Shown here one piece after another: positions 4,147-64,000 of a stretch of DNA of 64,000 nucleotides (positions within the stretch are counted from its first letter, which is position 1; each line of letters starts with the position of its first letter). The notes below the pieces were generated by a model. That model was not told the DNA's origin and did no database searches. It saw only the letters and a program-made list of their open reading frames with translations. A program made the translations under genes and the position numbers. The DNA is from Psilocybe cubensis (taxonomy: Eukaryota), in contig CM039006.1 in the NCBI GenBank assembly GCA_017499595.2, positions 1,674,001-1,738,000 of the forward strand. Direction: 5' to 3'.

Positions 4147-4785
4147 TTTTCGAACAAATGAGTTGATTGGAGGAAAGTATAACTACCCCTCTCTTGTACG
4201 AATTATATCGCTAGAACTCTATCCTTGAATCAATAGTGCTGTCAGTCAAGATATCAAAATAACTATCTATGTAGGTGTGTCCTAAAATACTTGTGCCTTG
4301 TGTCGCCAAGAAAATACAATTGGTGAACCTAAGCGCCTGCAGACCACATGTACTTCTACCGTCTACGCTGATGTGTAGCCTGTTTTCACGTGGAATTCAC
4401 ACGTTACAGTGTGTGCGAGACGTCAGATGTGTCGTTCAGCAACGGGATAGAGGATTGAAAGTGAAAATCTCAATTCATGTGTTGCTATTTTAGCATATCA
4501 ACTGGTTTGGGCGTCTAACCCGGCGCGATCGCAATGTCCGTGGCACCTGACTTGACATTCCCTTGAGCCTTATTATAAGACGCTGACGGCTTATATTCAC
4601 CCATACTTAACCACTTTCCCACTTTATCTCTTGATTATCGCCTCCAGCATCATTTCAGATACTAGTAACGCTTTACTCGTCCAGGAAGATTAGCCTATAC
4701 GTCAGGAAAGGTACGTCAATGACGTCCGTATCTCAAATCATCTGGCGTACTAGTTATTTATGTATTCTGTAGGTAGTCTAACGCG

Positions 4786-7135
4786 ATGGCTGAGAGAACG
4801 GACTATAGTGGCTCTCTCTCTGGGAGTGCTATTGTGTACGTTGTTTTACTACCACATCGGATCTGACTCTCACTTTCAAATGACGTAGCATGTCCGAGCC
4901 CCAAACAGACGACAACTCTGCTACTCAGTGGCAGTAAGTACACTTCCATCACTTTATTTTCCACAGTGAACCTTATCACCCATTAGCCATGGCCCGATCA
5001 CCTCGAGACTATTCGCTTTGATTATCGGCATTAATACATACGATGATTCCAAGTACTTTTTTAATCTGCGAGGCGCCCGGGCAGATGCGCTTCGTCTCAA
5101 GGCGTACTTGGAGGAAAGCCTCCTGGTTCCAGAAACTCACATAAAACTTCTACTGGACAAGCAAGCCAGTCGACAGAAAATCCTGGAAACCTTAGAGGAA
5201 CTGGCCAACGATAAACGCATCGTCAGAGATGATCCGCTACTCATATTTTTTGCTGGTCATGGGACAGAGATCGAAGATGTGGTGGACGGGGAGAAAAGCA
5301 AGATACAAATGATTGTCCCAGCTGATTACATTGCCATCCCCGATTTCATTATTGGCAGGCTACTTGACTACATTGCTGATAACAAAGGCAACAACATCGT
5401 ATGTGCCAAAAGACACCACGTCACATGGCCTTTATGTTGACTTCCTGCTATCCCCCAGACTGTAATTTTTGATTGCTGCAATTCTGCATCGGGCACACGC
5501 GGCTCGATTGTCACCAGCAACCCATCCGCTCCCTTGACTCGCGCTATTGATCCAAGCCATGTCAAATATAAGAAAGACCTCGACCAGGTGTTGCTACGGA
5601 GAATTCGACGAGCGACACAGGATGGACTTAGAAAGTTGGGAGTACAATCGCACATGCTACTAGCAGCCTGCCAATCCTCCGAAGAAGCCAGAGAAAAAAA
5701 CGGCTTCGGTGTTTTCAGTTCTGCATTGCTAAATCTCTTTAAAGCCAAACCACCGACCATCCTCCGATACTGCGATATTCTTGACCAGATGGATGTTATA
5801 TTAGGGTGAGTCGATCCGTAGCTCTATGTATAACGTGAAAAAGTAAGAAATGGCATGCTTACCCATTTCTTCTGCCACAGGCAAAATCCTCAATGCCAAG
5901 GCCCCTTCCAGGACAGGATGTTATTCGACGGAAAATGCAAAACTCGCTCCATCAAAAGCAAATTCAAGGTTCAAACTGGGCCCTTCCGAGATCCAATGTC
6001 AAATATGACCATCCACGCAGGTAGCGCCCACGGAGTCACTAATGGTGCCGTGTTCGAGGTTTATGACTCTGTGGATGCCTCATTCACACGGCCCCTGGCA
6101 AGGGCCACCGTTCAACCAGTGATCAGGGCATTTTGTTCCCCTGCAATCTTGGATCCAGGACACTCCCTACACAAATATGATTCCAAAACGCTTGTCGCCA
6201 TCCAAGTCAGATCCGGAGAGAAGGAAGCCCTTCGTCTATACGTACCTCCTGGTGATCCTTTCCGCAAAATCTATTCCGACGCGATTTAAAGTCAACCCGG
6301 TCGCGACAATGGGTTATCCTGCATTGTACTTACCGATCACAAGGACGAGACCACCAAGTTACAGGCTACGATGAACGCTGCTAATGATGTCGTATTCGAG
6401 TTGTGCGACGAAGCGGTAACAAAATATGGGGTTTCGAGGCGTTTCCCTCCAGTACCTACTGATGATGGCCACACGCTCCCCTGGGTCTTGAATAGGGTTG
6501 CGCACTACTTCTCGGAATTGAACCGCCGAAACGTCAATTCCCAACTGGCTGAGAAGGTCACAGTAGAATTCTATAAATTACAGGAACTCGATGATGACAC
6601 CGACGAGTTGGAAAAGGTTGAACCAAACCTTTGCAAGGGCAACATTATCGATTTTGTGGTTGAAGATGGTTCTCCATATGGAATCAAGCTAAGAAATAAG
6701 AGCGATCATGACCTCTATCCATATGTGTTCCAGTTCGGAAGTGATCTGTCTATCTGTATGTCTCTTTCACAACACGGGAATATGGATTGATCTGACACAG
6801 TCGAAGATGAATATTTCCAAAGTTCAAAACCAGGGATCACGTATAAGGTTGAACCGACCTTGAAAAAGCACGACGAGATCACCCTTGGATTTGGCCCCAA
6901 CAACTATGCAGAGCCATGTTCATGTGTGCTCGAGGACAGTCAGAACACCGACGTCACTTTTCTGAAAATATTCTTGTCAACCACAGCTCTAGATCTTAAT
7001 CACATCAAGCAAGAAACTCCCTTCGAAACTACCCGTGCCCTGAAGACATGCACAAAGCCACGTAAGGATAAATGGGATGCCCTTACGATACCAATAATCC
7101 AACGCAGGGCAGGTACTTCTTCTACCTATAGCTGA
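4786..7135 (+). pseudogene. Metacaspase (peptidase C14) domain protein with long C-terminal extension; in-frame TAA at 6287-6289 (pseudogene, truncated allele, or stop removed by an intron)
   Basis: LFALIIGINTY...LRGARADA, IFFAGHG (catalytic His) and VIFDCCNS (catalytic Cys). ORFs 5855..6289 and 6371..6790 are in the same frame, separated by a single TAA. Confidence 0.75.
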
Positions 7136-7617
7136 ATGGCGGGTTCCGCCCCCGCTGAAGGATATATAATCGATCGTGCGATGGATTGTAAAATAACCAA
7201 ATCAGACAAGCTTGAAGTAGGTTCCTGTCGGAGGGATAAACTCACTGACACCATGATTATGTTTACGATAAAAATGTATGTTTCGAAACCTGCCCAATGT
7301 TTACTGTCATCTCAACATTGATCCCCATCGAGCGCACCACCAGTCATGAATACCATCTCGTGCCTTTTAATCACCGCACTGTCGGCCTCCGAAACCTGCC
7401 CAATGCTTCTTTGTCGTCTACACCATCGTCACACTCGCCGGCCTGCAGAATTCTCTGGCTAGTGCCATCGGGGGCACAAATGCTTTACAATCTCGCGTTC
7501 CGTGGATCGAGGGACTGACTTGGAAAGATATACAACATCTTTGAATACGAATTCCGACGACTTTGAAGTTTGATGGAAAGCAGAAAGCTTGTTCCATTGC
7601 ATAATCTATACTTTTCA

Positions 7618-27448: not shown

Positions 27449-28412
27449 TCATTTAATCCACAAGTTTCTGTTATCCTGGAAGAATTGCAACAAAGTTCTT
27501 TTCCCCACAAACTTCTTGTTATCAGCTTCCTCCAAAAACTTCTCTTCCGATCCCGCGGCAATCTTATGCTCGATGTCAGCAAGGTATGCCGCATATTCGA
27601 GCGATAAGAAATGACTGAGAATTTGAGTCTTTTCTTCGACTGATATATGCCTGTGAGTTATTGTCCTTCCCAGGACAGTAGAAAGAATGTGGGCAGCCTG
27701 AAGACACATGGTTTTGAGTGGAGCTTTTCGTGAGATTGGAAAGGTCATACCTCGTCATACGAGTGTAGCTCAGGTCCTAGAATTAAAAATTCTTCTTGAA
27801 GGGTTTTATCCGCGGTCAAAGCTTTAAAAGCAGCTTCTGCTATGTCTTGAGCAGCAATGAAAGGAACCTTGCCATTTCCTGACGTTGTAACTATCTCATT
27901 GTTCTCCCTGATACTGGTGTAGAACATGGTAGCGAAATTATCTGTCGAATATGCGGTGTGAGTGTACTGAATAGTGTCGGGCAACAAAATAATAACTGTG
28001 CAGACATACCAATGAACCAGGTAGGCTTAAGTACTGTAAATTCAACGTTAAGGTCCAACAGAACTTGGTGGATGACTCCCGTTGGTCGATCCCCAGGCTG
28101 AGATTGAGTAGATGTCAAGGCGACAAATCTCTTTACTCCCTTTGACACAGCCAACTCCAGGAATGGCCTCACATACGGCAGTTGTTCAAAGACGTTGTCG
28201 GGACCGACAATGTATATTTTGTCGATATTCGGATCGGCCTGGAAAGGATTTTCGTATGTCGTTGGATCGAGCCAATTAAATGTGACGGCTTTGAAAGGTT
28301 CAGGCGCCTTCCCAGAACGCGACGCAATGAGGAATGGCACATTAGCGCTGTGGAGGAGTTTGCAAAGTATGGAACCTGTTTTCCCGTTGCCGCCTGTGAC
28401 GAGGATGGTCAT
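27449..28412 (-). CDS. NmrA-like NAD(P)-binding protein, EasG (agroclavine dehydrogenase)-like, copy 1
   Basis: MTILVTGGNGKTG, LKPTWFI|DNF, GKVPFIAAQDIA, GPELHSYDE. Confidence 0.88.
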
Positions 28413-28951
28413 TTTGATACTGTGGATGACCATGGCTTTCTCCAACCCAGATTAAATGTAAGTCCAACTCGGAGGTATCATTCTATTACCTCCCAAATTT
28501 AGCCCGCACGCGACGTGTAGCCACCTCATGTCCGCAAATGTAGCTGTGTTGAATTATGTTTGTTGTAGCATCACCGAACTGCTTGCCAGTCAATCTTATT
28601 CATCATGAATCCTACGCGAAATTACAGAAATTTGCTTAGTGTAACGTTCTGTCATAGCCGCCCGGACTCCGTCTAACGTGCACAGTTTTATTACGAATAA
28701 GATCGGAGGTAACAAACAACTTAGCGACACGATCGATATACTTTCATTATTGCAGACACTTGGCATTAGAGTGGCTGACAAAACTTATCATAAATCTTCT
28801 AATTCATAAATCGATCGATTGGTCATCGGACACGGTTTTGAGGATTTCAATGTGACGGCGATAATGAATGTATACTCCATATGTTGTCATCCCTAAGTTT
28901 CTCTACTTCATCAGAACAAATTATCGATCTATCGTCGAAAGCTCAACCCAC

Positions 28952-29897
28952 CTATTTGATCCATATATTTCTGTTTGCTTCGAAATACTCCTTCAACGTG
29001 TGTTTGCCCACGTACTTGCGATCCTCACTCTCATCTAATATTTTTTCCTCTGCTCCCGATGCGATCAAGTGTTCGACATGTGCCAGGTGTCTGGCATACT
29101 CAGGCGCCAAAAAATATCCGAAGATTTGGGTTTGTTGCTCGACTGTGTGTCGTTTGTGAACGATCTCTCTCCCTAGGACAGAAGAAAGGAGCTTGGCTGC
29201 CTGTTATAAATACGTGAGTTATAGAAGACCATATTCTAAGCGTGAATTACCTCGTCATATGAGTATAGCTCTGGCCCAACCAAGAAGTAATCTTTGTTAG
29301 GGGACCTTTCAGCAGTAAAGGCATCAAAAGCGGCTTGGGCTATATCTTCTGCTGATACAAAAGGTACGCGCCCATCTTCTGCACAAGAAAATATTTCATT
29401 CTTCTCTCTGATGCTCATATAGAACGTGGTAGAGAAATTTTCTAAGATCTCTCGTTATTGAATTTGCAGAACGCTTAGGAGGGTTTGTGCCACTTACCGA
29501 TAAACCAAGTCGGTCTGAGAATCGTATAGTCGACTTTCAAGTTCAACAGACATTGATGTATTGTGCCCAATGGAATATCCCCAGGTTCAGATTGTGTGCT
29601 TGTGATAGCTACAAATCGTTTAACCCCCTGAGACACAGCGAGTTCTAGGAATGGTTCTACATGGCGAATGGCATCGTAGGCCGACGGTGCGACAATAAAG
29701 AGTTTATCGATGGTGGTACCGGTCTGGAAAGCGTTTTTGAAAGTTGCGGGATTGAACCAATCAAACTCAACAGCTTGGAATGGTTCTGGTGCTTTCCCCG
29801 AGCGAGAAGCAACAAGGACTGGTTGCCCCGCTTGGTGGAGTAGTTTGGCAAGGGCGAGCCCAGTTTTCCCGGTTCCACCAGTAATGAATGTTGCCAT
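28952..29897 (-). CDS. NmrA-like/EasG-like protein, copy 2
   Basis: MATFITGGTGKTG, LRPTWFI|ENF, GRVPFVSAEDIA, GPELYSYDE; same two introns as copy 1. Confidence 0.88.
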
Positions 29898-31602
29898 TTC
29901 GACAATCCTTTCGATGGATAGATTCAGTGTGATTTATAGTTACCTGTGTACGACAGTGTACGGAGAATATTCGAAGAATTTGCAATAACTCATCGACGTA
30001 GGATTACGAGTCTTTACGTAAGTAAAGATGAGTTCTTTTATCCCCACAACCCAGCGAGCAAAAATGTCCTCGCCAATTGTCCCCATCAAAATATTATTGA
30101 TGCGATCAATGTCGTTACCGCTATCGGTATTTTCCTTAAGCGGTCACCGGACCCCCTAAGCAACCCCTTTCCAATTCATTCTGAGACTTCTTTTTACCAT
30201 TGGTTACTTTAAAGGTTGTTTTTGATTTGTTTTGATCGCAATGTGAATGTGCGTTTCCATAAAATTAATTATACCCAACAACAATAGTCCTACTCAATTC
30301 ACTTTTTTGCGTTGTTGTTTAATTTTTAAAACCATGTGGAACCATCTAGCCAACGTGCTTATATATTGTACTAATACTTAGAGATGGAACAAATGCACTC
30401 TTTGAACTATGGGTCTGAAAGGTTGGAAATAGAACTGTGCAGGCACACACGTTCCTTAATATCGGTAGCTTCATCAATCAGAGTTCAAATAGAAATAATT
30501 ACGCGTTCTTGGGTTCTGGGCGTTCTGTACTATTTGAATTTGATTTTCTGATTCATGATCGTTTCTCACGCATACCAATTTGTTCTTCCCCTATGTCGGG
30601 CGTCTATCGGCTTACGGTTAATATATTTATTGACGTAGTATAGACAATGCACTTTTCTCCGCACTGTTTTACCCATGGCTTCCGCGTTATCCCCCCGTTT
30701 CCAACAGTATGTTCACTGTTTTATCTCATTTGGTTATTACTTATTTTTTAGAGTCTTTCCGCCTCCCATGGACGATATGTACATGGATCAGATGGATCTG
30801 AAAACCCTCTACCATTTCTCTTGAACTTGCAAGAAGCTAAACGACCGCGTTTTGGGCTATATGTGCCGCGCCTTCCGTCCCAAAAATTTATTTGCTCCTA
30901 TCTTCAAACCCAATGAACATTTGCTGTTTTGTCTTCTCCAGTTCAAGACTGGCCTGGTTATTTCAGGTTCCACCGTTTTGCATTTTACTTGTTTTAGTGG
31001 TCCAACGCAAAGCGTGGCATGACAAGACTTTACATCTCACAATTGTATAAAATATTTTTTAATCTAGATTTATATAACATAGTTAATATATATTAATATG
31101 TTCTGAATGCACAGCTAGATACTGGGCAAGGTTATGATTAATTACTATGACTTAGGTCTACTACAAGCTTAGTTGTGTCAGACACAAAAAATAGCTGCAC
31201 AGGTTATAAGGCCTAATTGTAAGGAAGAACTTGTCTATTATAATTTTCATACCTGCTAAATATTGAAGAATTCCAGATCTGCTGGGAGAATCCCGTATGG
31301 AAAACTGATGGAAGAATGCTCATGTGTATGGCTGCCCAAGTGGGGACATATTTCCCATAAATATAATTTTCTTATTTTTGAAAAGTGCATCAAGAGTGAA
31401 ACAATATTGTGTGCAAAAACATTTGTTTGGTGCGCATATTTCTTTTTGGCATAGTTTGATGTTGCTGTGAACACAATTGGCTGTGTGGAAACATATTTCA
31501 AGCATAATTTGCAAGTGTTAGTGCATTATTTCTTCCCCAAAATACATTCAATGCATGGAAAACATTATTCAAAATGACCATCTCTTGACCAAAGTGGCCA
31601 GT

Positions 31603-32054
31603 GCTCAATGCAAATTGAGTGTAGTGACCGTGGGAATATCCTGCGTACAGTGTGCGCAGGATATTCCCACGACCTGCTTATTAATTCACGGCCAGTACAA
31701 ACACCACAGCAAGTAAAATATAATAAGATCATCTAAACTAGGACTGAAAATAATTATTATTGCCAAAAATACTTGTATTTTACCTAAAGTATATGCAATG
31801 CATCTCAGTAATATATCAGGAATTACCAGAGAAGTTCAAGTTGCTCAATGCAAAGTGCGGCAACCGTGAGAATAACTTGCATACACTATATGCAAGTTAT
31901 TTCCACAGTCTGCTTATTAATTCATGGCCAGTATGAACAGCACAACAAGTTTAATATGACAAGTTATTTGAAGTGGCATTAAAGATAATAGCTAGATACA
32001 TAATGTTTATTATTCTTTATTCTATGCCACCACAGTCTGCTAGTCATTCATGCT
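31603..32054. repeat. Degenerate ~237-bp tandem duplication, each unit containing a 43-bp palindrome
   Basis: TGCTCAATGCAAA...palindrome...CTGCTTATTAATTCA(C/T)GGCCAGTA at ~31603 and ~31842; partial third copy near 32030. Confidence 0.75.
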
Positions 32055-32519
32055 AAATTTTTTTTGATAACAATAAAGCATTCTATTTACCTCTACTTGC
32101 CGTTAGAGGTGTATAAAGCATGCAAAACAGTTGGTATGTAATTGATTGTGACTAATTAATGGCCTTAAATCAGTTGAATGAGGTCATTATTATAAAATTT
32201 TTGGTTATGAGCGATAATTATCTGCGTCAAAATGTTTAACTTGCAATTAAAAAGTCATAATGTAATGGTATCTAATTTTGTTTTCTACCATATGGCAGCT
32301 AACCTATCTACCTAGCTAATATCTAGTATTTTAATTTCCATATTCCCTTGGTAGGAACAAAAACTAACAGAAATTCTATGATAGTAACCGATTATTAAGT
32401 CAAGCATACCGGTTAAGTAAAAAACCGGTATTAATCACGCAATTTTGATGGCATCAATGATTTACTGATGGGGACAATTGACAAGGACATATTTTTGTAC
32501 AGTGGGTTGTGGGGATAAA

Positions 32520-33185
32520 CACTGCGGGTGCCGACTGCTGTAAGTTAAACATACAGCAATAAACTTACATGTCTTATGTAAGTTTAGGTGTATGTTCAAC
32601 TTACAGCACATGTGTCGGGGAAACAAACCTTTAACAAAGACATGTTGTATTTGGTGGCTGTATGCCGGCCAAACACAATTGCTGTAAGTAGACTGTAAAT
32701 AGAATAAACACCTATATTACACAAATTCTGTTTGTCCGGTGTTAGTAAAACATACACATTTTCTTTAAGTAATAGAAACAGCACTTACTGTAAATAAAAA
32801 TTACACACAAAGAACACTATTTGTGTATGTCAGACTTACACCATTAAATGAATTGAAAAACTTGTGTAAGTATAACATACACAAATTGTGTTCTTTGTGT
32901 GTAATTTTTACTTACAGTAAGTGCTGTTTCTATTACTTAAAGAAAATGTGTATGTTTTACTAACACCGGACAAACAGAATTTGTGTAATATAGGTGTTTA
33001 TTCTATTTACAGTCTACTTACAGCAATTGTGTTTGGCCGGCATACAGCCACCAAATACAACATGTCTTTGTTAAAGGTTTGTTTTTCATACACATGTGCT
33101 GTATGTTGAACTTACAGCGAAACTTACATAAGACATGTAAGTTTTCTGCTGTATGTTTAACTTACAGCGGTCGGTGCCCGCAGTG
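32520..33185. mobile_element. Foldback MITE with CACTG termini (CMC/EnSpm-like), 3-bp AAA TSD
   Basis: CACTGCGGG...CCCGCAGTG ends; arms of ~320 bp around a ~22-bp spacer. The uninterrupted homologous site at ~30030 has a 4-base T run versus 3+4 A here, which gives a 3-bp TSD. Confidence 0.88.
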
Positions 33186-34395
33186 AAAAGAACTTGCTTT
33201 ACTTACATAAAGTTTCGTAATCAATCGTGCTAATATATGGATTCCGGGTGACATGGACATGTATGTCGAGCACAGATATGCTCTTTCCGTTCTTTCCTGG
33301 ATGATGTCCATTGGATTTACTATCATGCCGCATCCCAAATATCCGGACAACACCACAGCGGAAAAAATTTTGAAAATGGAAAAAATCGTCCTTCAGAAAC
33401 ATCCTCTTCATCGACATTACAATACCACTGGAGTGGTCGTTAACCTATGGTGCCAAGGTTCTTTTGTCCAACTGATTACGACTTGTCAATCGGTGGTAGA
33501 GTGCATTTTGGGGTATCATAGCAGTATGTCCCCAATGTCATGTGTCAAAACAATGTTAACTTCAATTTTGTTCTACTGCAGCCGGCGTCATGAATTTTGT
33601 TACCTTTGAGAAGGTGTACAGCTTGTATCCAAATGCTACCTTTGGATATCAAGTCTCTCTGTTGCAACCTTCTGCCGACCTCAAGCGCACGCAAAAATTT
33701 CTTGCAAAATATCATTCCCGTGGCTTGAAATTTGTTCTTTCCATTCCATCGCAAACTTTGAAAATGAACCGCCATATCCAAAGCAGGATACAGTCTATCA
33801 GGGACAACGTAAATGTTGGGTATAGTTCATCTCGTGGTCATGTTCTTGTTGTGCTGGATTACGATCCTTATCTAGAGTTGTTCTCTCCTGGGATTAGACG
33901 GGTTGGCGACAGGCATTGTTGGGTTTATTCTTTGCCTCTTTTACCCAAAGCAAATCAGACTTCCTTTGTTGAAGCCAATTCATGGGCATTGTTGCTCAAT
34001 GAATTTGATTGTTTGCATTTTGGTGTCCGTCGCATCAGCGGTATCGCATTAGATTTTCACTACACAGCGGCAGATGTTTACCAATTACACAAGCGTGTCA
34101 AAAAAGCTATCAAATCCTGGGAAAGGGGTATAAGGTGTGTGCTCTTTAGTTTTAGTATTTGTCAATTTAATTCCTGTAATGTAGGCAAAAAGATGACTGT
34201 GTACATGCAACTGTTTTGTATTTGCTATCCAGAAAGGCAGATATTTTTTGGTTGCATCGCCCTCAACCACAAAGCCTCTTGTGGAATGGATATTTGTAAT
34301 TTCTTCTATCCTTAGTCAAATTTTTGTTCGAAATAAACTTGTGTTCTCGTCCTCATTCTTTTTGTCTTAATTTGTAAGTTTGACTTGCGGATGAG

Positions 34396-34577
34396 CGTGG
34401 GAATATCCTGCGTGCAGTGTACGCAGAATATTCCCACGGTCAACCTCTCCCGATATTCAGCCGAGTGTGGGAATATTCTGCGTACAGTGTACGTAGAATT
34501 CTCCCACGGACTTCCTCGCCGATATTCAGCCGAGTGTGGGAATATTCTGCGTACAGTGTACGCAGGATTCTCCCATG
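34396..34577. repeat. Three tandem 43-bp palindromes, period 69-70 bp
   Basis: GTGGGAATAT(C/T)CTGCGT(A/G)CAGTGTACG(C/T)AG..T..CCCA(C/T)G three times, with near-identical linkers ending CCGATATTCAGCCGAG. Confidence 0.9.
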
Positions 34578-34721
34578 GGGTGCCAACTAACACCTTCAGA
34601 TAATTTCTGTCATGAAAATGACTTGACAAATTATTCCTTGTTATTTACAATGTTCACACAAATGGATTGATTATTTGTTCAGCACATTTATGATATCCTT
34701 GTCTTTCTATGTACATATGTA

Positions 34722-35696
34722 TTAATCTTGGGACATAGTATTGCTATTGTGGACTGTGTCCTCATTTAAGCGCATATGTGCCATCCTCTGTTGCGTGTCT
34801 TCAATGTCAATCTGACCTTTGTACAGCTGCCTCTTTGTCCTACACAAAACAGCAACCTGTCTTTTCGCTGGAGTATAGCGTGACCGCATTCTGAGAATAT
34901 CAGCTTTCTGTTGGAAGTTATGAATGGCTATGAGACTGTTCAATGTAACATTGCTTACCTCTCTTGCCTCCTGGTCCAAGACAAGTATTCCGCAAAGAGC
35001 GACAACAAATTTGTACTTGTTTCCTTGGGCAGGAAATGCGACAAAGGCAACACTGATCTCGACAATGTCTCCAATTCGTATGGAGGCAGGATTATAAGAA
35101 TAATATCTGTTGCAACATGATATTAGTTTGGTTGTGATGTGTTGTTGGTATTTTCTAAACATACCTGGCTGTTCCGTCAGGAAGTATCTCCCGACAAAGA
35201 AACTGTACCTTGTTATCGATTGCGTGGATGAAACTGTCCCCTACCATGGATGCCAACACGTTATCAGGGTCGACCAGGGGATGAAAACCTATGTTGTCAG
35301 ATTTGTCTTGATATGCGGATACCTTCGTGAAATATTGGCTATGCGCATGGAAAACATTGAAACCCGTGTCTTTGTAAAGAACTGGGTCATAGCCGCTGAC
35401 GCTGTCCGCGGGAAAATTGTTTGCAAAACGGAGGAAAACTTCTTCTAGCTTTTCCATCACCTTATTGAACACAATGTCTCCGAGTCCCGTGATAGCAATG
35501 GTGGTACGTAAATATGGTTGTTGCTTGACCGTTCTGTCGCGGCTGTAACAGTCCTCATTTGTAATTAATTCACCTCAATGGAGTGGACGTACGAAGCAGG
35601 CTTTGCCATTGGTGGTAGCATCTTGTCGCTAACTATGCCTTGGAGTCTGAATATCACTTCGTCCATTGCACCAATATCCACGTCAAAGTTGGACAT
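34722..35696 (-). CDS. Element-borne hypothetical protein (second cargo gene; may be 5'-truncated)
   Basis: Four exons splice in frame: MSNFDVDIGAMDEVIFRLQGIVSDKMLPP...VDPDNVL...HAIDNKVQF...PASIRIGDIVEISVAFV. Confidence 0.7.
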
Positions 35697-36202
35697 ATTT
35701 ATATTATATTATATATATATTATATTATTACAAAGCGTGACGCTGAATCGTAAAGACTCGTCATGCCACGCTCCGCGGTGGCCCACTAAAACAAGTGTAC
35801 GATTTAAATAGGGGGAGCCATCCGGATGTTGATATGCGGACAAGCCTACCGCGCCTTGCTCTCATTGGTTGAAAGCGATTTGTCAGCAGCATTTTCGTAA
35901 TAAGCCAACCCAAAACCGCACAGCGCAACGGCAAACATCCATAACATCCATTAACTCTCGTCAAGAACACCGGTTCAATGTGTACGGTGAGTATGGAGCT
36001 CATGAATATCGCTTTATGTCAGCATCCTAAGTGGAGGATGACGCTGGATGACTTTGGGAAAGTGCTCGATTGCTATGATACTCGACATTGACATATAAAT
36101 ATACCAGAAGAAACGAATTACTGGGAGTGAATACCGATGGGTCACAAAGTCCAAACACGAGATTGTAAAATGGAATGATATCTTCGGGATAGAGAAAAAG
36201 AA

Positions 36203-41475: not shown

Positions 41476-41807
41476 CACTGCGGGCGCCGACTGCTGTAAG
41501 CTGAACATACAGCAGTAAACTTACATGTCTTATGTAAGTTTAGGTGTATGTTCAACTTACATGTGTCAGGAAAATAAAGATTTGACAAAGACATATTGTG
41601 TTTAGTGGCTAGATGCCAACCAAACACAATTACTGTAAGTAACCTGTAAGTAGAATAAGCACCTAAATTATGCATATTGTCTTTGTCCGGTGTTAGTAAA
41701 ACATACACATTTTCTGTAAGTCATACAAACAGCACTTTCTGTAAGTAAAAATTACACACAAAGAACACAATTTGTGTATGTTATACTTACACAAGTTTTT
41801 CAATTCA
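41476..41807. mobile_element. Solo arm of the CACTG foldback MITE
   Basis: Begins CACTGCGGGCGCCGACTGCTGTAAG and follows the reverse complement of ~32849-33185 into the spacer; the second arm is absent. Confidence 0.88.
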
Positions 41808-42031
41808 GGTGGTACTCTCTTGCACCCGTGCGTCTTAGCACTTTTTGTTTGCTTGTTGCACGATAATAAACAGATTCAAAAAAGAAAAAAAAAGTCATAG
41901 ACTTACACTCTTTTCGTTCTTCTCATGGCTGTCAGTGTCACATGGCCCCTGACAAGGTAAACAACAGTGATAAACCATCTACATCTGCGTCAAGCCTCAG
42001 GGAGCATCTTTCACATAATCACAGAAAGATC

Positions 42032-42999
42032 ATGACAATCCTCATAACAGGTGGAACAGGAAAAACCGGTCTCGCTTTGGCAGGACTCCTCCATGACTCG
42101 GGCTATTCTTTCCTCATCACTTCTCGCAAGGGCACAGCGCCAGCGCCCTACAAGGCAATAAAATTTGACTGGTTTAAGCCGGAAACCTTCGAAGCACCCT
42201 TCCAATCCGATTCCAATATCGATAAAGTGTTCCTTATCGACCCACCAGCATTCGACATCTTTCCACGCGTAAAACCCTTCATTGATATCGCTTTATCGAG
42301 AGGGGTCAAAAGGTTTGTTGGGCTTACGACAACACAAACCAACCCCAAAGATGTACCACTTGGAAAGGTGCATCAGTACCTACTAGATCTTGGAGTTGAC
42401 TATGCTATTCTTAGGCCAACGTGGTTCATTGGTAAGCGGGAATTATGGTATTGCAGAGGACCCAATGGGCAGTTGGCTGATACAAGGTCTGTCCAGAGAA
42501 CTTTGGAACGGATCTACAGCCAAGTATCAGAGACGACGACGAGATAGCATCATCAGGAGAAGACGGAAAAGTACCCTTTGTCTCGGTCAAAGATATTGCT
42601 GCTGCTGCTTTTATAGCACTAACAGCTGAGGAAAGCCTCAATAAGGATATTTTTGTTATTGGACCAAATCTTTATTCATATGACGAGGCATGTATAAGCC
42701 TTCTTGATGATACCCTGGGTCGACTGACGTGGAGAAATTCTTTGTGTTAGGTTGCCTCAATGATTTCTTCCGCCGTTGGCCGTAAAATCACTCACAAAAG
42801 GCGAACGGTTGAGGAGCAGACAGAGATGTTCCAACAGTTTCTCAGTCCAGAGTACGCCGCCCATCTCGCTCGCGTGGAACACTTGATTGCAGACGGAGGA
42901 GAAGAGAAATTCTTCTACGAGAGTGAAGATCGGAAGTATGTGGGGAAGCATACTTTAGCGGAATACATTGAGAGTAATCGTGCGCTATGGATGAAGTGA
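42032..42999 (+). CDS. NmrA-like/EasG-like protein, copy 3
   Basis: MTILITGGTGKTG, LRPTWFI|ENF, GKVPFVSVKDIA, GPNLYSYDE; second intron has a GC donor at 42688. Confidence 0.88.
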
Positions 43000-53650: not shown

Positions 53651-55354
53651 ATGTCCTCGCACTCTGCTCTCCCTAAGCTCGACAACACCTTTGGTGCGCT
53701 GCTTATCGGAGTGATATTAGCCGCCGCGTAACTTTTAAGAAACCTTCAATGTCTTTGCGTAAGCTAGACTCACCGGACCGTGATCTGTGATACAGGCTTT
53801 GGGGAATAGCAACGGCTCAGGTCTATTGGTGATCGTCTTGCGCATTACTCACGATTCACATATCTAATGGCTATCAGGTACCATATCTCTTACCCCAAAG
53901 ACAGAGTTGGATTGAAGGCACTGGTGAGTTCACCTGCGCCGTTTTGGATAACATAGAGAATTTACGTCATTTTTATTTAGGTCGCTGCTGTATGGTTTGT
54001 ACTACTACTAGCCAATTAAATGACATTGAATGTATGACTCTTCTGGTCTTCGAATGCAGGGTATTAGACACCGTCCACCAGATCGTCATTTGCCAGTCAA
54101 GTGGGGGACCTATCCACCTTTTTCTATATCCAACATGCTAAAATTGGCTTTTTAGTATATTACTTCCTCATCCAGGTAGCTTTGACATGACATGGTCTTT
54201 GTATTTCCTCTCAATCAAGCTTTCAGAATTACTTTAATCCCGCTGCCCTCGATCACCACATATGGAGCTTAGTGGTAATATGTTGTCAGCTGTGCATCTC
54301 CTAATACTTTAATTAACACCGAGTTGAAATAGGTCCAGGCTTTTTTGGAGGTGGAGCTGCTCAGCAAATCTTTATTCCTCGTACTGATCGGATTCAATCT
54401 AGGGTATGGTTTGTCTCGGAGTTCAAGGATTTTTCGTCTTCCGTATCGCAAAACGCGAGTCCATTCCTTATATGATTCTCTCAGTGCAACAACTTACCGA
54501 TGCCCTTTAGTCAGCCGTGGAAATATCACTCTAGTATCCATTCCTAGCGTCTTTGTCCTGGCAAAATTCGGTTCGTGCAATTCTGGTGATGTTATTGCAA
54601 TAATTGCTTAGTCCATTTATAGCTGTAACGTGTGGTGAGCCGACACTTCCTGGCATTGAAAAAATATTTAACGGCAACAGCATATACTAGCAGAGGCTTT
54701 CAGATTCACAGCATCACTGAAGTTCTTCATAAAATCCACAAACTCTCAATCTCAATAAATGGGACAGCAGCAGCGGCAGATGTGATCATCGCAGCAACTA
54801 TGACGTATTTGTTGTATTCCCAAAGAACAGGATGGGCGAATACAGATGGAATCGTCAATCGACTAGTAGTAAGTTTCGTAAACACCAATCTAAACAATGC
54901 ACAGAATTGATCCGATGGTGCAGATTTTCACAGTTAATACCGGTATCGTGACCTCCATGGCGGCACTGATTACTTTAATTGTTGCAGTCACCTTGCCAAA
55001 TAGCCCTATGTATGCAGCGTTTTATTTCATTACCGGGAAATTGTAGGTCGTCCACTCCTGTACACAAAATCTGATCCATAACTCTTATTAAATTAGGTAC
55101 CTGAATACTATGCTGGCGTCATTGAATGCAAGGAAAGGGATATCAACCCTTAAATCCACTTCCGCGTTCCAATTGGAAAGCAACTCTCCGCCTCTCTTTG
55201 TTTCGAAGTTCGATGGACAACTAGACGCCACAAATAGTGCTCAGGGTATTGGCGATAATGCAAGTACAATCTAAGTCTTATCATCAATCTTTATTCTGAC
55301 ACCATGATAAAGTTGCAATTGAAGACCGGCACTTTCACCGGCACAGAGTTTTGA
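53651..55354 (+). CDS. DUF6534-type multi-pass membrane protein (last exon phase uncertain)
   Basis: PKLDNTFGALLIGV, YPKDRVGLKAL, VLDTVHQ, AAADVIIAATMTYLLYSQRTG, TVNTG, YLNTMLASLNARK; many micro-exons. Confidence 0.82.
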
Positions 55355-62884: not shown

Positions 62885-64000
62885 ATGTCTGCCGCTGCGC
62901 CCCCTGCCCTTCCAAAGCTCGACAACACTTTTGGCGCTTTGCTGATAGGGGTGATACTAGCCGCCGCGTAAGTTGTACCCCCATCAATGCGGTAGTGTTG
63001 GCTCAATGTGTTCCGAACATCTAGTCTATGGGGAATCGGAACTGCTCAGTGCTACTGGTATTTCTCAAATTCTTGTCTGTAATCTCATCTGTTCTGCCTC
63101 TCATATCCATCCGTAGGTATTATATCACATACCCTAAGGATAGGATCGGGATTAAAGCGCTGGTAAGTCGTGGCTTCAGATGACTGGCTGGTATTGACGT
63201 TTATCATGATAGGTCGCTGCTATTTGGTCCGTTTTACCGTCAATTAACACCGGTTCTCCCTTAATACTCTTCAATCTACAATAGGATATTAGATTCTGTC
63301 CATCAAGCGGTCATCGTACAGTCAAGTAAGTCGTATCATCTTTACCCGCCTGGGCAACATGTTAGATGTTGATCCGTTTTCAGTATATTATTTTCTCATC
63401 CAGGTACCTCTTCGCTTCCAGACCATGATCGACGTTCGCATCATTAATTTCATCGATGGTAGAACTATTTTAATCCAGCGGCGCTTGATAACCATATATG
63501 GAGCTTGGTGGTACGCCCAAATTTGCAGTTGACACCTGAGATGATAACTCACCTCACCAAAACCTTCATCAGATACAAGCTTTACTAGAGGTAGACCATA
63601 CAGCACCTTTCTCTTAGTTAAATCATAACTCAATCCGCGTGTAGGGTCTCGTCTGCCTTGGTGTTCAGGGTTTCTTTGTGTATCGTATTTGGAAATGTGA
63701 GCTCGATTCAATTATCCTGTGAGCTTCATTAACACGTATTAAATAATAGTAAGTCGAAAAAACTACATCCTCGTCGCTATACCCAGTGTTTTCGTCATAG
63801 CAAAATTTGGTGCGTCGCGCATTGCGATTGGCCTTTTTTTCTATACACTGATTTGCTCCCCCGTTTAGCTGTAACATGCGGTAAGCCATCAAGGGATCTG
63901 ACTAGCTATGACTAACCTCGTATCTTCTACCCACAGCCTATACCCACCGAGCATTTCAAATCCATAGCATTACAGAAGTTCTTCACGAAATACACCATTT
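62885..64000 (+). CDS. DUF6534-type membrane protein, paralog of 53651-55354, runs off the window end
   Basis: MSAAAPPALPKLDNTFGALLIGVILAAA; same micro-exon pattern as the paralog. Confidence 0.82.

Follow-up and report, generated by a model that had tools for sequence, protein, structure and literature searches.

A pseudogene of an F-box/nucleotidyltransferase-like accessory gene in an HLE2 rolling-circle transposon of Psilocybe cubensis

What gene lies in pieces at positions 30675–34299 of a 64,000-nucleotide stretch of the Psilocybe cubensis genome, and what has broken it? The stretch (the window; contig CM039006.1, positions 1,674,001 to 1,738,000) corresponds to G000:C9:1674001-1738000 of the 46.6-Mb, 21-contig assembly G000, after which contigs are named below. 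An earlier sequence-only reading had proposed a mobile-element cargo gene with a nucleotidyltransferase (NTase) motif divided by an insertion. We find that the gene is a pseudogene of an accessory gene of the fungal HLE2 (Helitron2-type) rolling-circle transposons. As judged from structural models, the intact protein joins an N-terminal F-box to the head and neck of a class II (CCA/poly(A)-polymerase-like) NTase.

The gene is on the plus strand. Exon 1 (30675–30706) was placed by its GT..AG boundaries and by agreement with P0001, a public 384-residue protein model that is 96% identical to an unsplit copy and matches the predicted exon boundaries. After an intron at 30707–30751, the 5' part of exon 2 (30752–30987) carries the F-box-like region, an internal TGA at 30822–30824 and an ISGS motif with GS at 30966–30971. 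The frame from 30675 translates as ...LKTLYHFS*TCKKLNDRV...TGLVISGSTVLHF and is picked up again at 33221 as INRANIWIPGDMDMYVE...FVQLITT...ILGYHS. This 3' part of exon 2 (33221–33523) contains DMD (33250–33258), the Q of the third-carboxylate site (33469–33471) and YHS. A 58-nt GT..AG intron (33524–33581) after ILGYHS is followed by GVMNFVT...KYHSRG in exon 3 (33582–34134), which includes T-GVMN, LYP, KYHSRG and the C-terminal region. The intron at 34135–34184 and exon 4, up to the stop codon (34185–34299), follow P0001. Reading both frames bears out the translation, the stop and the GS/DxD split given by the sequence-only reading, which was also right that the insertion between GS and DxD hides the motif from the track of open reading frames (ORFs).

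The join between GS and DxD is real, because three copies elsewhere in the genome (L016, L017 and L018) lack the insertion and read HF-IN without interruption. In two public contig sets from one study (X1 and X2), the insertion junction also occurs with a loose end; therefore, the insertion is not an assembly artefact. The codon of the premature stop encodes W in 13 of 15 split copies and in all three unsplit copies. Therefore, the stop is not ancestral, and it was rejected as a sign of family-wide decay. The window copy is a pseudogene and cannot be active itself. Two sequencing runs presumed to be RNA yielded no contigs over this region, which speaks neither for nor against expression.

The gene lies in an outer non-autonomous HLE2 element (30004–35795, plus strand), which was compared with 18 fetched copies and two divergent loci and has identical boundaries in the fetched copies. 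It begins with TT, finishes with CTAAAACAAG and is followed by T, without a target-site duplication. The left terminus (30004–30028, plus strand) has a 12-bp sub-terminal inverted repeat (30006–30017) overlapping a short hairpin (30011–30028). The right terminus (35750–35795, plus strand) has the matching 12-bp repeat (35750–35761), a GC-rich hairpin (35765–35782) and the terminal CTAAAACAAG. The base 3' of the right end is T at all 18 right ends that were examined, and the base before the 5' TT is A in nine, G in seven and T in two of 18. The single available empty site carries one T. The lack of a duplication was seen by comparing the empty site in the unsplit copies with the nested insertion; the outer flanks are unrelated.

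The insertion that splits the gene consists of two nested elements. The larger is an inverted, non-coding HLE2 element of a sister subfamily (30988–33220, minus strand) with the same type of terminus, which separates GS from DxD. It is 80–92% like a decayed element at G000:C7:3335822-3343760. Fourteen other fetched copies carry it at this site, L016–L018 lack it, and at least 20 full-length copies with at least 99% identity, the window copy included, are present in the genome. Therefore, it was the broken composite that was amplified, not the intact gene. The smaller is a palindromic CACTG...CAGTG miniature inverted-repeat transposable element (MITE; 32520–33185, no strand assigned), which has 322-nt arms that are 95% complementary and an AAA duplication, and is private to the window copy among those compared. 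A cut-and-paste element that would be bounded by the 47-bp inverted repeat at 30987/35796 and contain the gene's 3' half was considered and rejected, as the repeats are the right ends of two opposed Helitrons.

According to PMC11417382, HLE2 elements are marked by short terminal inverted repeats and DUF6570. The window element has asymmetric terminal inverted repeats with stem-loops, no duplication, and a partner element that shares its termini and encodes a DUF6570 RepHel. The proposal that the gene is mobile-element cargo is thus upheld, and its carrier is identified as HLE2 from the termini, the copies and the partner element. A canonical Helitron (HLE1) was rejected; it needs 5' TC and 3' CTRR, and the observed ends are TT and CAAG. 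As in the FoHeli elements of Fusarium (PMC5148889) and the HELIANO survey (PMC11417382), there are asymmetric sub-terminal inverted repeats, hairpins at both ends, no duplication and a DUF6570 RepHel, which is opposed to the hairpin end, an orientation also seen in some FoHeli and Helentron families (PMC5148889). However, the target here is N|T (A 9, G 7 and T 2 of 18) and not the usual T|T, which is a tendency, as other HLE2 insertion preferences also exist (PMC5148889). The elements here also differ in their size of 18 to >41 kb and in carrying many genes.

The partner element (G000:C3:3668727-3695135) is 26,409 bp long with both termini. The window element consists of its first ~3.42 kb and last ~100 bp and is a deletion derivative that has lost the interior. 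The 26.4-kb element holds an unsplit NTase copy, a convergent partner gene and a second, more divergent NTase gene (P0003). On the opposite strand, its RepHel is an open frame of 2781 codons with an HUH motif and a Walker A motif. DUF6570, Helitron_like_N and PIF1 stand above the Pfam cut-off, and no Exo_endo_phos match, which would point to the AP-endonuclease of a Helentron, was found in a scan of the 2180 N-terminal residues. More long ORFs without Pfam matches lie in this element (L036:1231-2583, 4489-5460 and 6492-7526; L017:8264-8773), and two of them have homologues in metagenome locus L092. In the window, the partner gene (34722–35696, minus strand) is convergent with the NTase gene and has no Pfam match. 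It has 30 matches in the genome, and its homologues adjoin a RepHel or an NTase gene in six metagenome loci from other fungi. A single-sequence fold of one homologue, P0152, was uninformative, with a predicted local distance difference test score (pLDDT) of 33.

The NTase family is large. A search against 1.84 billion representatives gave 1022 clusters (50% identity, E ≤ 0.001); the ten that were looked up are hypothetical proteins of mushroom-forming fungi, and a language-model atlas also gives an Ascomycota cluster. Motifs were counted across 104 aligned sequences, taken from the best 150 matches. G83 is conserved in 104, S84 in 100, D100 in 97 and D102 in 102 of them. The GS/DxD conservation on which the proposed motif depended therefore holds in 97–104 of 104 homologues and is far from chance. 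GS, DxD, H189, N195, K233, Y234 and R237 are all at least 90% conserved across these divergent sequences, and FHSTxVMN, LYPxAT and KYxxRG are strongly conserved. The NTase signature quoted in PMC11646218 is hG[GS]x(9,13)Dh[DE]h; P0001 has a spacer of 15 residues between GS and DxD, and most homologues have one of ~14, a little more than this pattern allows. Sequence databases did not name the family: Pfam gave no family for the three exon pieces of the window or P0001, PHROGs gave no match for 21 proteins tested, and a PDB sequence search returned weak F-box matches and one chance match, and nothing for the sister clade described below.

The AlphaFold model of the intact relative P0001 has a pLDDT of 81.9 and a predicted template modelling score (pTM) of 0.83. 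In the PDB, it is matched best by class II enzymes that add CCA or A (Foldseek E 1e-4 to 1e-3); 176 residues were aligned on them with a Z-score of 10.6 and a root-mean-square deviation of 3.8. FAM46/TENT5, MenT1 and antibiotic adenylyltransferases come next, with lower ranks for Pol X (Z 5.5) and Pol beta (Z 5.2). The suggested NTase fold is thus confirmed, with class II tRNA nucleotidyltransferases as the matching group. Compared with these enzymes and bacterial poly(A) polymerase (PDB 4wby, 3wfo, 1miv, 3aql, 3h37 and 1ou5), the family shares the head and neck, the G-S motif and DxD. It differs in its low identity (10–13%), the Q of the F-box clade and the N-terminal F-box, and nothing in the family matches the tRNA-binding body and tail. 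Class II CCA-adding enzymes carry motif B (RRD) and the template motif D (EDxxR) (PMC7947759). Both are absent from the 104-homologue alignment, where FHSTCVMN and KYxxRG are found instead; therefore, the family would have a class II build without being a CCA-adding enzyme.

The F-box-like N-terminus, also part of the sequence-only reading, was supported from two sides. At E ≤ 0.01, 15 of the 104 homologues matched the F-box-like family PF12937 and 14 matched PF00646, and P0001 itself matched neither. Residues 1–52 of the P0001 model align with Skp1-bound F-boxes at Z-scores of 4.5–5.5.

A FastTree tree of 85 domain sequences, rooted at the midpoint, splits the family into an F-box clade and a sister clade (support 0.95). 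The tree draws on a metagenome scan of 62 loci and on about a quarter of the A1 proteins; one duplicate row was omitted, as were loci with fewer than 120 profile columns, including L110 and L112, which have neither a RepHel nor the partner gene. Q173 occupies the third-carboxylate site in 95 of the 104 F-box-clade homologues; of 17 sister-clade loci from metagenomes, 13 have D there and four have N. The profiles of the two clades align with a probability of 99.9, with Q opposite D. The position was assigned from the order of the strands in the model and from the profile alignment, not by superposition. The third carboxylate is listed as a conserved feature of the NTase fold (PMC11646218), and the sequence-only reading took the Q as a reason to doubt activity. 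The Q is indeed there, but it is the norm of the family and not a product of decay in this copy; its reading as family-wide decay was also rejected. The sister clade appears to be intron-less, and no Pfam F-box match was found in the five of its proteins that were scanned.

Viral counterparts were found at the level of structure, not of sequence. The best structural matches overall are giant-virus proteins in BFVD, a set of predicted viral structures (Klosneuvirus A0A1V0SK13, Orpheovirus A0A2I2L471, Cedratvirus A0A2R8FG48 and Pithovirus A0A481Z1J9; E 8e-8 to 1e-5). Several of the matches are named F-box domain-containing or tRNA nucleotidyltransferase/poly(A) polymerase, and 265–300 columns were aligned, which suggests a common architecture. 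However, their identity is 10–16%, and they are themselves uncharacterised predictions. Two scans of viral contigs yielded 37 and 32 pattern matches, none of which was confirmed. A further link leads to Gad2, an anti-Gabija protein of phages that is predicted to have a nucleotidyltransferase domain (bioRxiv 10.1101/2023.05.01.538930). A precomputed Gad2 match (PF26128) is present in 9 of 92 sister-clade proteins, and the language-model neighbours include viral clusters labelled Gad2 (0.91 and 0.86). Our own Pfam scans gave no Gad2 match, although the Pfam copy used may not hold PF26128. Gad2 differs in being a phage protein directed against a bacterial system, and the 21 proteins tested gave no PHROGs match.

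How closely is the gene tied to its transposons? This genome has at least 22 Rep matches, and the NTase family is found on five of seven lineages whose RepHel or termini relate them to the C3 element. There are two NTase genes on the C3 element, one decayed gene on C5:1.78 Mb, a decayed gene on C3:1.10 Mb and five genes on each member of an 18.6-kb C4/C9 pair; in a lineage of >41 kb, an NTase gene lies 26–27 kb from Rep in three of five copies, two of which are truncated. The C4/C9 pair (G000:C4:329370-347973 and C9:2735450-2754054; L035, L040 and L042–L044) is 99.9% identical, and four of its five NTase-family genes lack DxD with mostly open frames and one frameshift in the C9 copy. The carrier at G000:C2:518844-559854 or further (L120–L124 and L151) encodes a RepHel and spans at least 41 kb; C7 and C12 have near-identical stretches. 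Its NTase is a basal F-box-clade member with an intact DxD. A decayed relic (L118 and L119, G000:C8:2429190-2432647) retains the partner gene and two NTase genes, one from each clade, and its left terminus has diverged. An intact lineage of seven copies (G000:C5:2907706-2928133), which has a RepHel frame of 2808 codons and is very recent (copies 99.98% identical), has the partner gene and no NTase in the 30–60 kb examined at three copies. The decayed C7 element also has no NTase gene. Two related lineages, one of them intact, thus lack the NTase; therefore, the gene is dispensable for transposition.

In metagenomes, a RepHel (five loci) or the partner gene adjoins 10 of 17 sister-clade loci, including nine of nine loci of at least 6 kb; the seven without are all shorter than 5 kb. 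The family also has host-resident members. One, at C6:334902 in this genome, has a TPR-CHAT neighbour that is shared with metagenome loci L073 and L106. The sequence-only reading had asked whether intact copies always lie inside these termini; they do not, and confinement of the gene to these termini was rejected. In the tree, the host-resident members form one nested clade (0.92), while the deepest split has element-linked members to either side. An origin on elements with later domestication is thereby suggested, although a midpoint root is no proof.

A comparison of substitution rates among copies had also been proposed, and it revealed no purifying selection. Over 361 codons, the ratio of nonsynonymous to synonymous polymorphism (pN/pS) is 0.61 among 15 split copies, 0.76 among the three unsplit copies and 0.56 between the two groups. 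The neutral expectation under the observed mutation spectrum is 0.53; therefore, the recent copies are unselected, and purifying selection among them was rejected. The split copies differ at 168 positions, of which 152 are C-to-T or G-to-A changes; 96 of these 152 are at CpG, which makes up 94 of 474 C-containing sites. The recent copies appear to have been mutated through methylation.

These observations give a history of the element. A sister HLE2 element inserted into the NTase gene, and the resulting dead composite was copied ~20 times in trans. It then drifted under CpG-biased C-to-T mutation, and the window copy also acquired a MITE and a stop. In intact members, GS and DxD may bind a metal-nucleotide complex for template-independent addition of nucleotides; the acceptor would most likely be the 3' end of an RNA and less likely a protein. 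The F-box may dock the enzyme on the Skp1-cullin ligase of the host. More conjecturally, the elements might keep the gene as an anti-silencing effector in a conflict with the host, outside the chemistry of transposition. In some mushrooms, a copy has also become fixed as an ordinary chromosomal gene.

With slightly better than even confidence, we thus regard the intact members as template-independent NTases that probably act on RNA 3' ends, are tethered by the F-box to a Skp1-cullin-F-box (SCF) ligase and serve as an optional effector against host control. Several points weigh against this reading. The catalytic role and the substrate are predictions from fold and sequence; the Foldseek TM-scores over the whole query are only ~0.3; and the F-box clade is without the third catalytic carboxylate. 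The recent copies are neutral, the three unsplit ones included (0.76 against 0.53 expected). These unsplit copies are also blemished: in one, both the G and the first D are gone; another has a late stop; and the last carries C where 90 of 104 homologues have R. DxD is kept in only three of nine element-borne paralogues of this genome. Among F-box-clade metagenome loci of at least 6 kb, none of 11 has a RepHel and eight of 11 lie among housekeeping genes; therefore, the F-box form is often not mobile. The metagenome sample is biased, because the search patterns were derived from host-like sequences.

The loss of DxD in six of the nine paralogues, most with open frames, would also be expected if the NTase fold of the F-box clade were non-catalytic and served as a substrate receptor of SCF, binding a nucleotide, RNA or protein and sending a host factor for ubiquitination. 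The gain of the F-box goes with the change from D to Q, and the CCA motifs RRD and EDxxR are absent. However, the seven conserved elements from GS to R237 seem to exceed what a dead pocket usually retains, and we consider such a pseudo-enzyme adaptor unlikely. The host-resident gene at C6:334902, with a neighbour common to two metagenome loci, and the neutrality of the recent element copies could instead reflect a host gene of Agaricomycetes that Helitrons picked up with no benefit to the element, as capture of genes by Helitrons is documented (PMC4289320 and PMC11417382). The tree argues against this, with element-linked members on both sides of its deepest split and the host-resident ones nested. 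There are also several carrier lineages whose RepHels are only 24–30% identical, one of them with five copies of the gene, and host-resident loci were seen only outside the sister clade. Passive capture is accordingly rather improbable in our view. We think it very unlikely that the enzyme, together with the convergent partner gene, heals or tails the single-stranded or circular DNA of the element. The gene pair is conserved beside a RepHel in unrelated contigs, but the structures matched best are those of RNA-specific enzymes, with Pol X and Pol beta below them, the intact seven-copy lineage has the partner gene without the NTase, and an F-box would be superfluous for such a role.

A wider form of the preferred reading, in which the intact members are template-independent NTases, is tentative and, we think, doubtful. 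It would make the family an ancient HLE2 accessory enzyme that shares descent with the giant-virus F-box NTases and phage Gad2, and a counter-defence effector whose nucleotidylation of silencing RNAs or proteins is coupled to SCF ubiquitination, with one branch domesticated as a chromosomal gene in mushroom-forming fungi. The idea of the sequence-only reading that the enzyme modifies nucleic-acid ends or counters silencing may be kept as a candidate role, by analogy with the fungal TET/JBP dioxygenases. These provide a precedent for transposon-borne anti-silencing enzymes, including on Helitron2, and are likewise enzyme cargo on several mushroom transposon lineages with a proposed counter-silencing role (PMC12730594). 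However, their fold and chemistry differ, and the likeness is an analogy only.

The element belongs to a known class, and its cargo is an unnamed, enzyme-like family on fungal HLE2 elements. The available text of PMC12730594 makes no mention of nucleotidyltransferases. No nucleotidyltransferase is found among the captured domains in section 22 of PMC11417382 or by a term search of its supplement. PMC4289320 describes Pleurotus Helitron cargo of unassigned function; this fold is not named in the available text, and the comparison is by description only. No paper on an NTase cargo family was found in the literature searched, which excluded subscription journals. Helitron cargo is commonly viewed as captured host fragments or a few recurring domains. 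Here, a large unnamed family recurs on several HLE2 lineages and has F-box-labelled giant-virus counterparts and fixed host copies. Were it active, this would be a template-independent NTase of a new kind, in which D and Q form a natural pair at the third catalytic site, and also a candidate means by which fungal transposons oppose silencing. The window copy alone is a dead passenger.

The window and its relatives have some further features. Three ~40-bp palindromes lie between the two convergent genes (34396–34578, no strand assigned); similar ones are found in the nested element at 31625–31671 and 31854–31963, and several in the 26.4-kb element. A second, partial CACTG MITE (one arm, 85–95% identical) lies at 41476–41807, 9 kb from the full one. 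At L137 (G000:C14:211452-215131), two left halves of the composite element form a head-to-head palindrome. The window contains three NAD(P)-binding epimerase/NmrA-like genes (27891–28445, 29475–29897 and 41942–42547), and the outer element sits ~100 bp upstream of the one at 29897. Two related intron-rich genes (53658–54181 and 62898–63409) are ~9.2 kb apart and 79–88% alike in short blocks.

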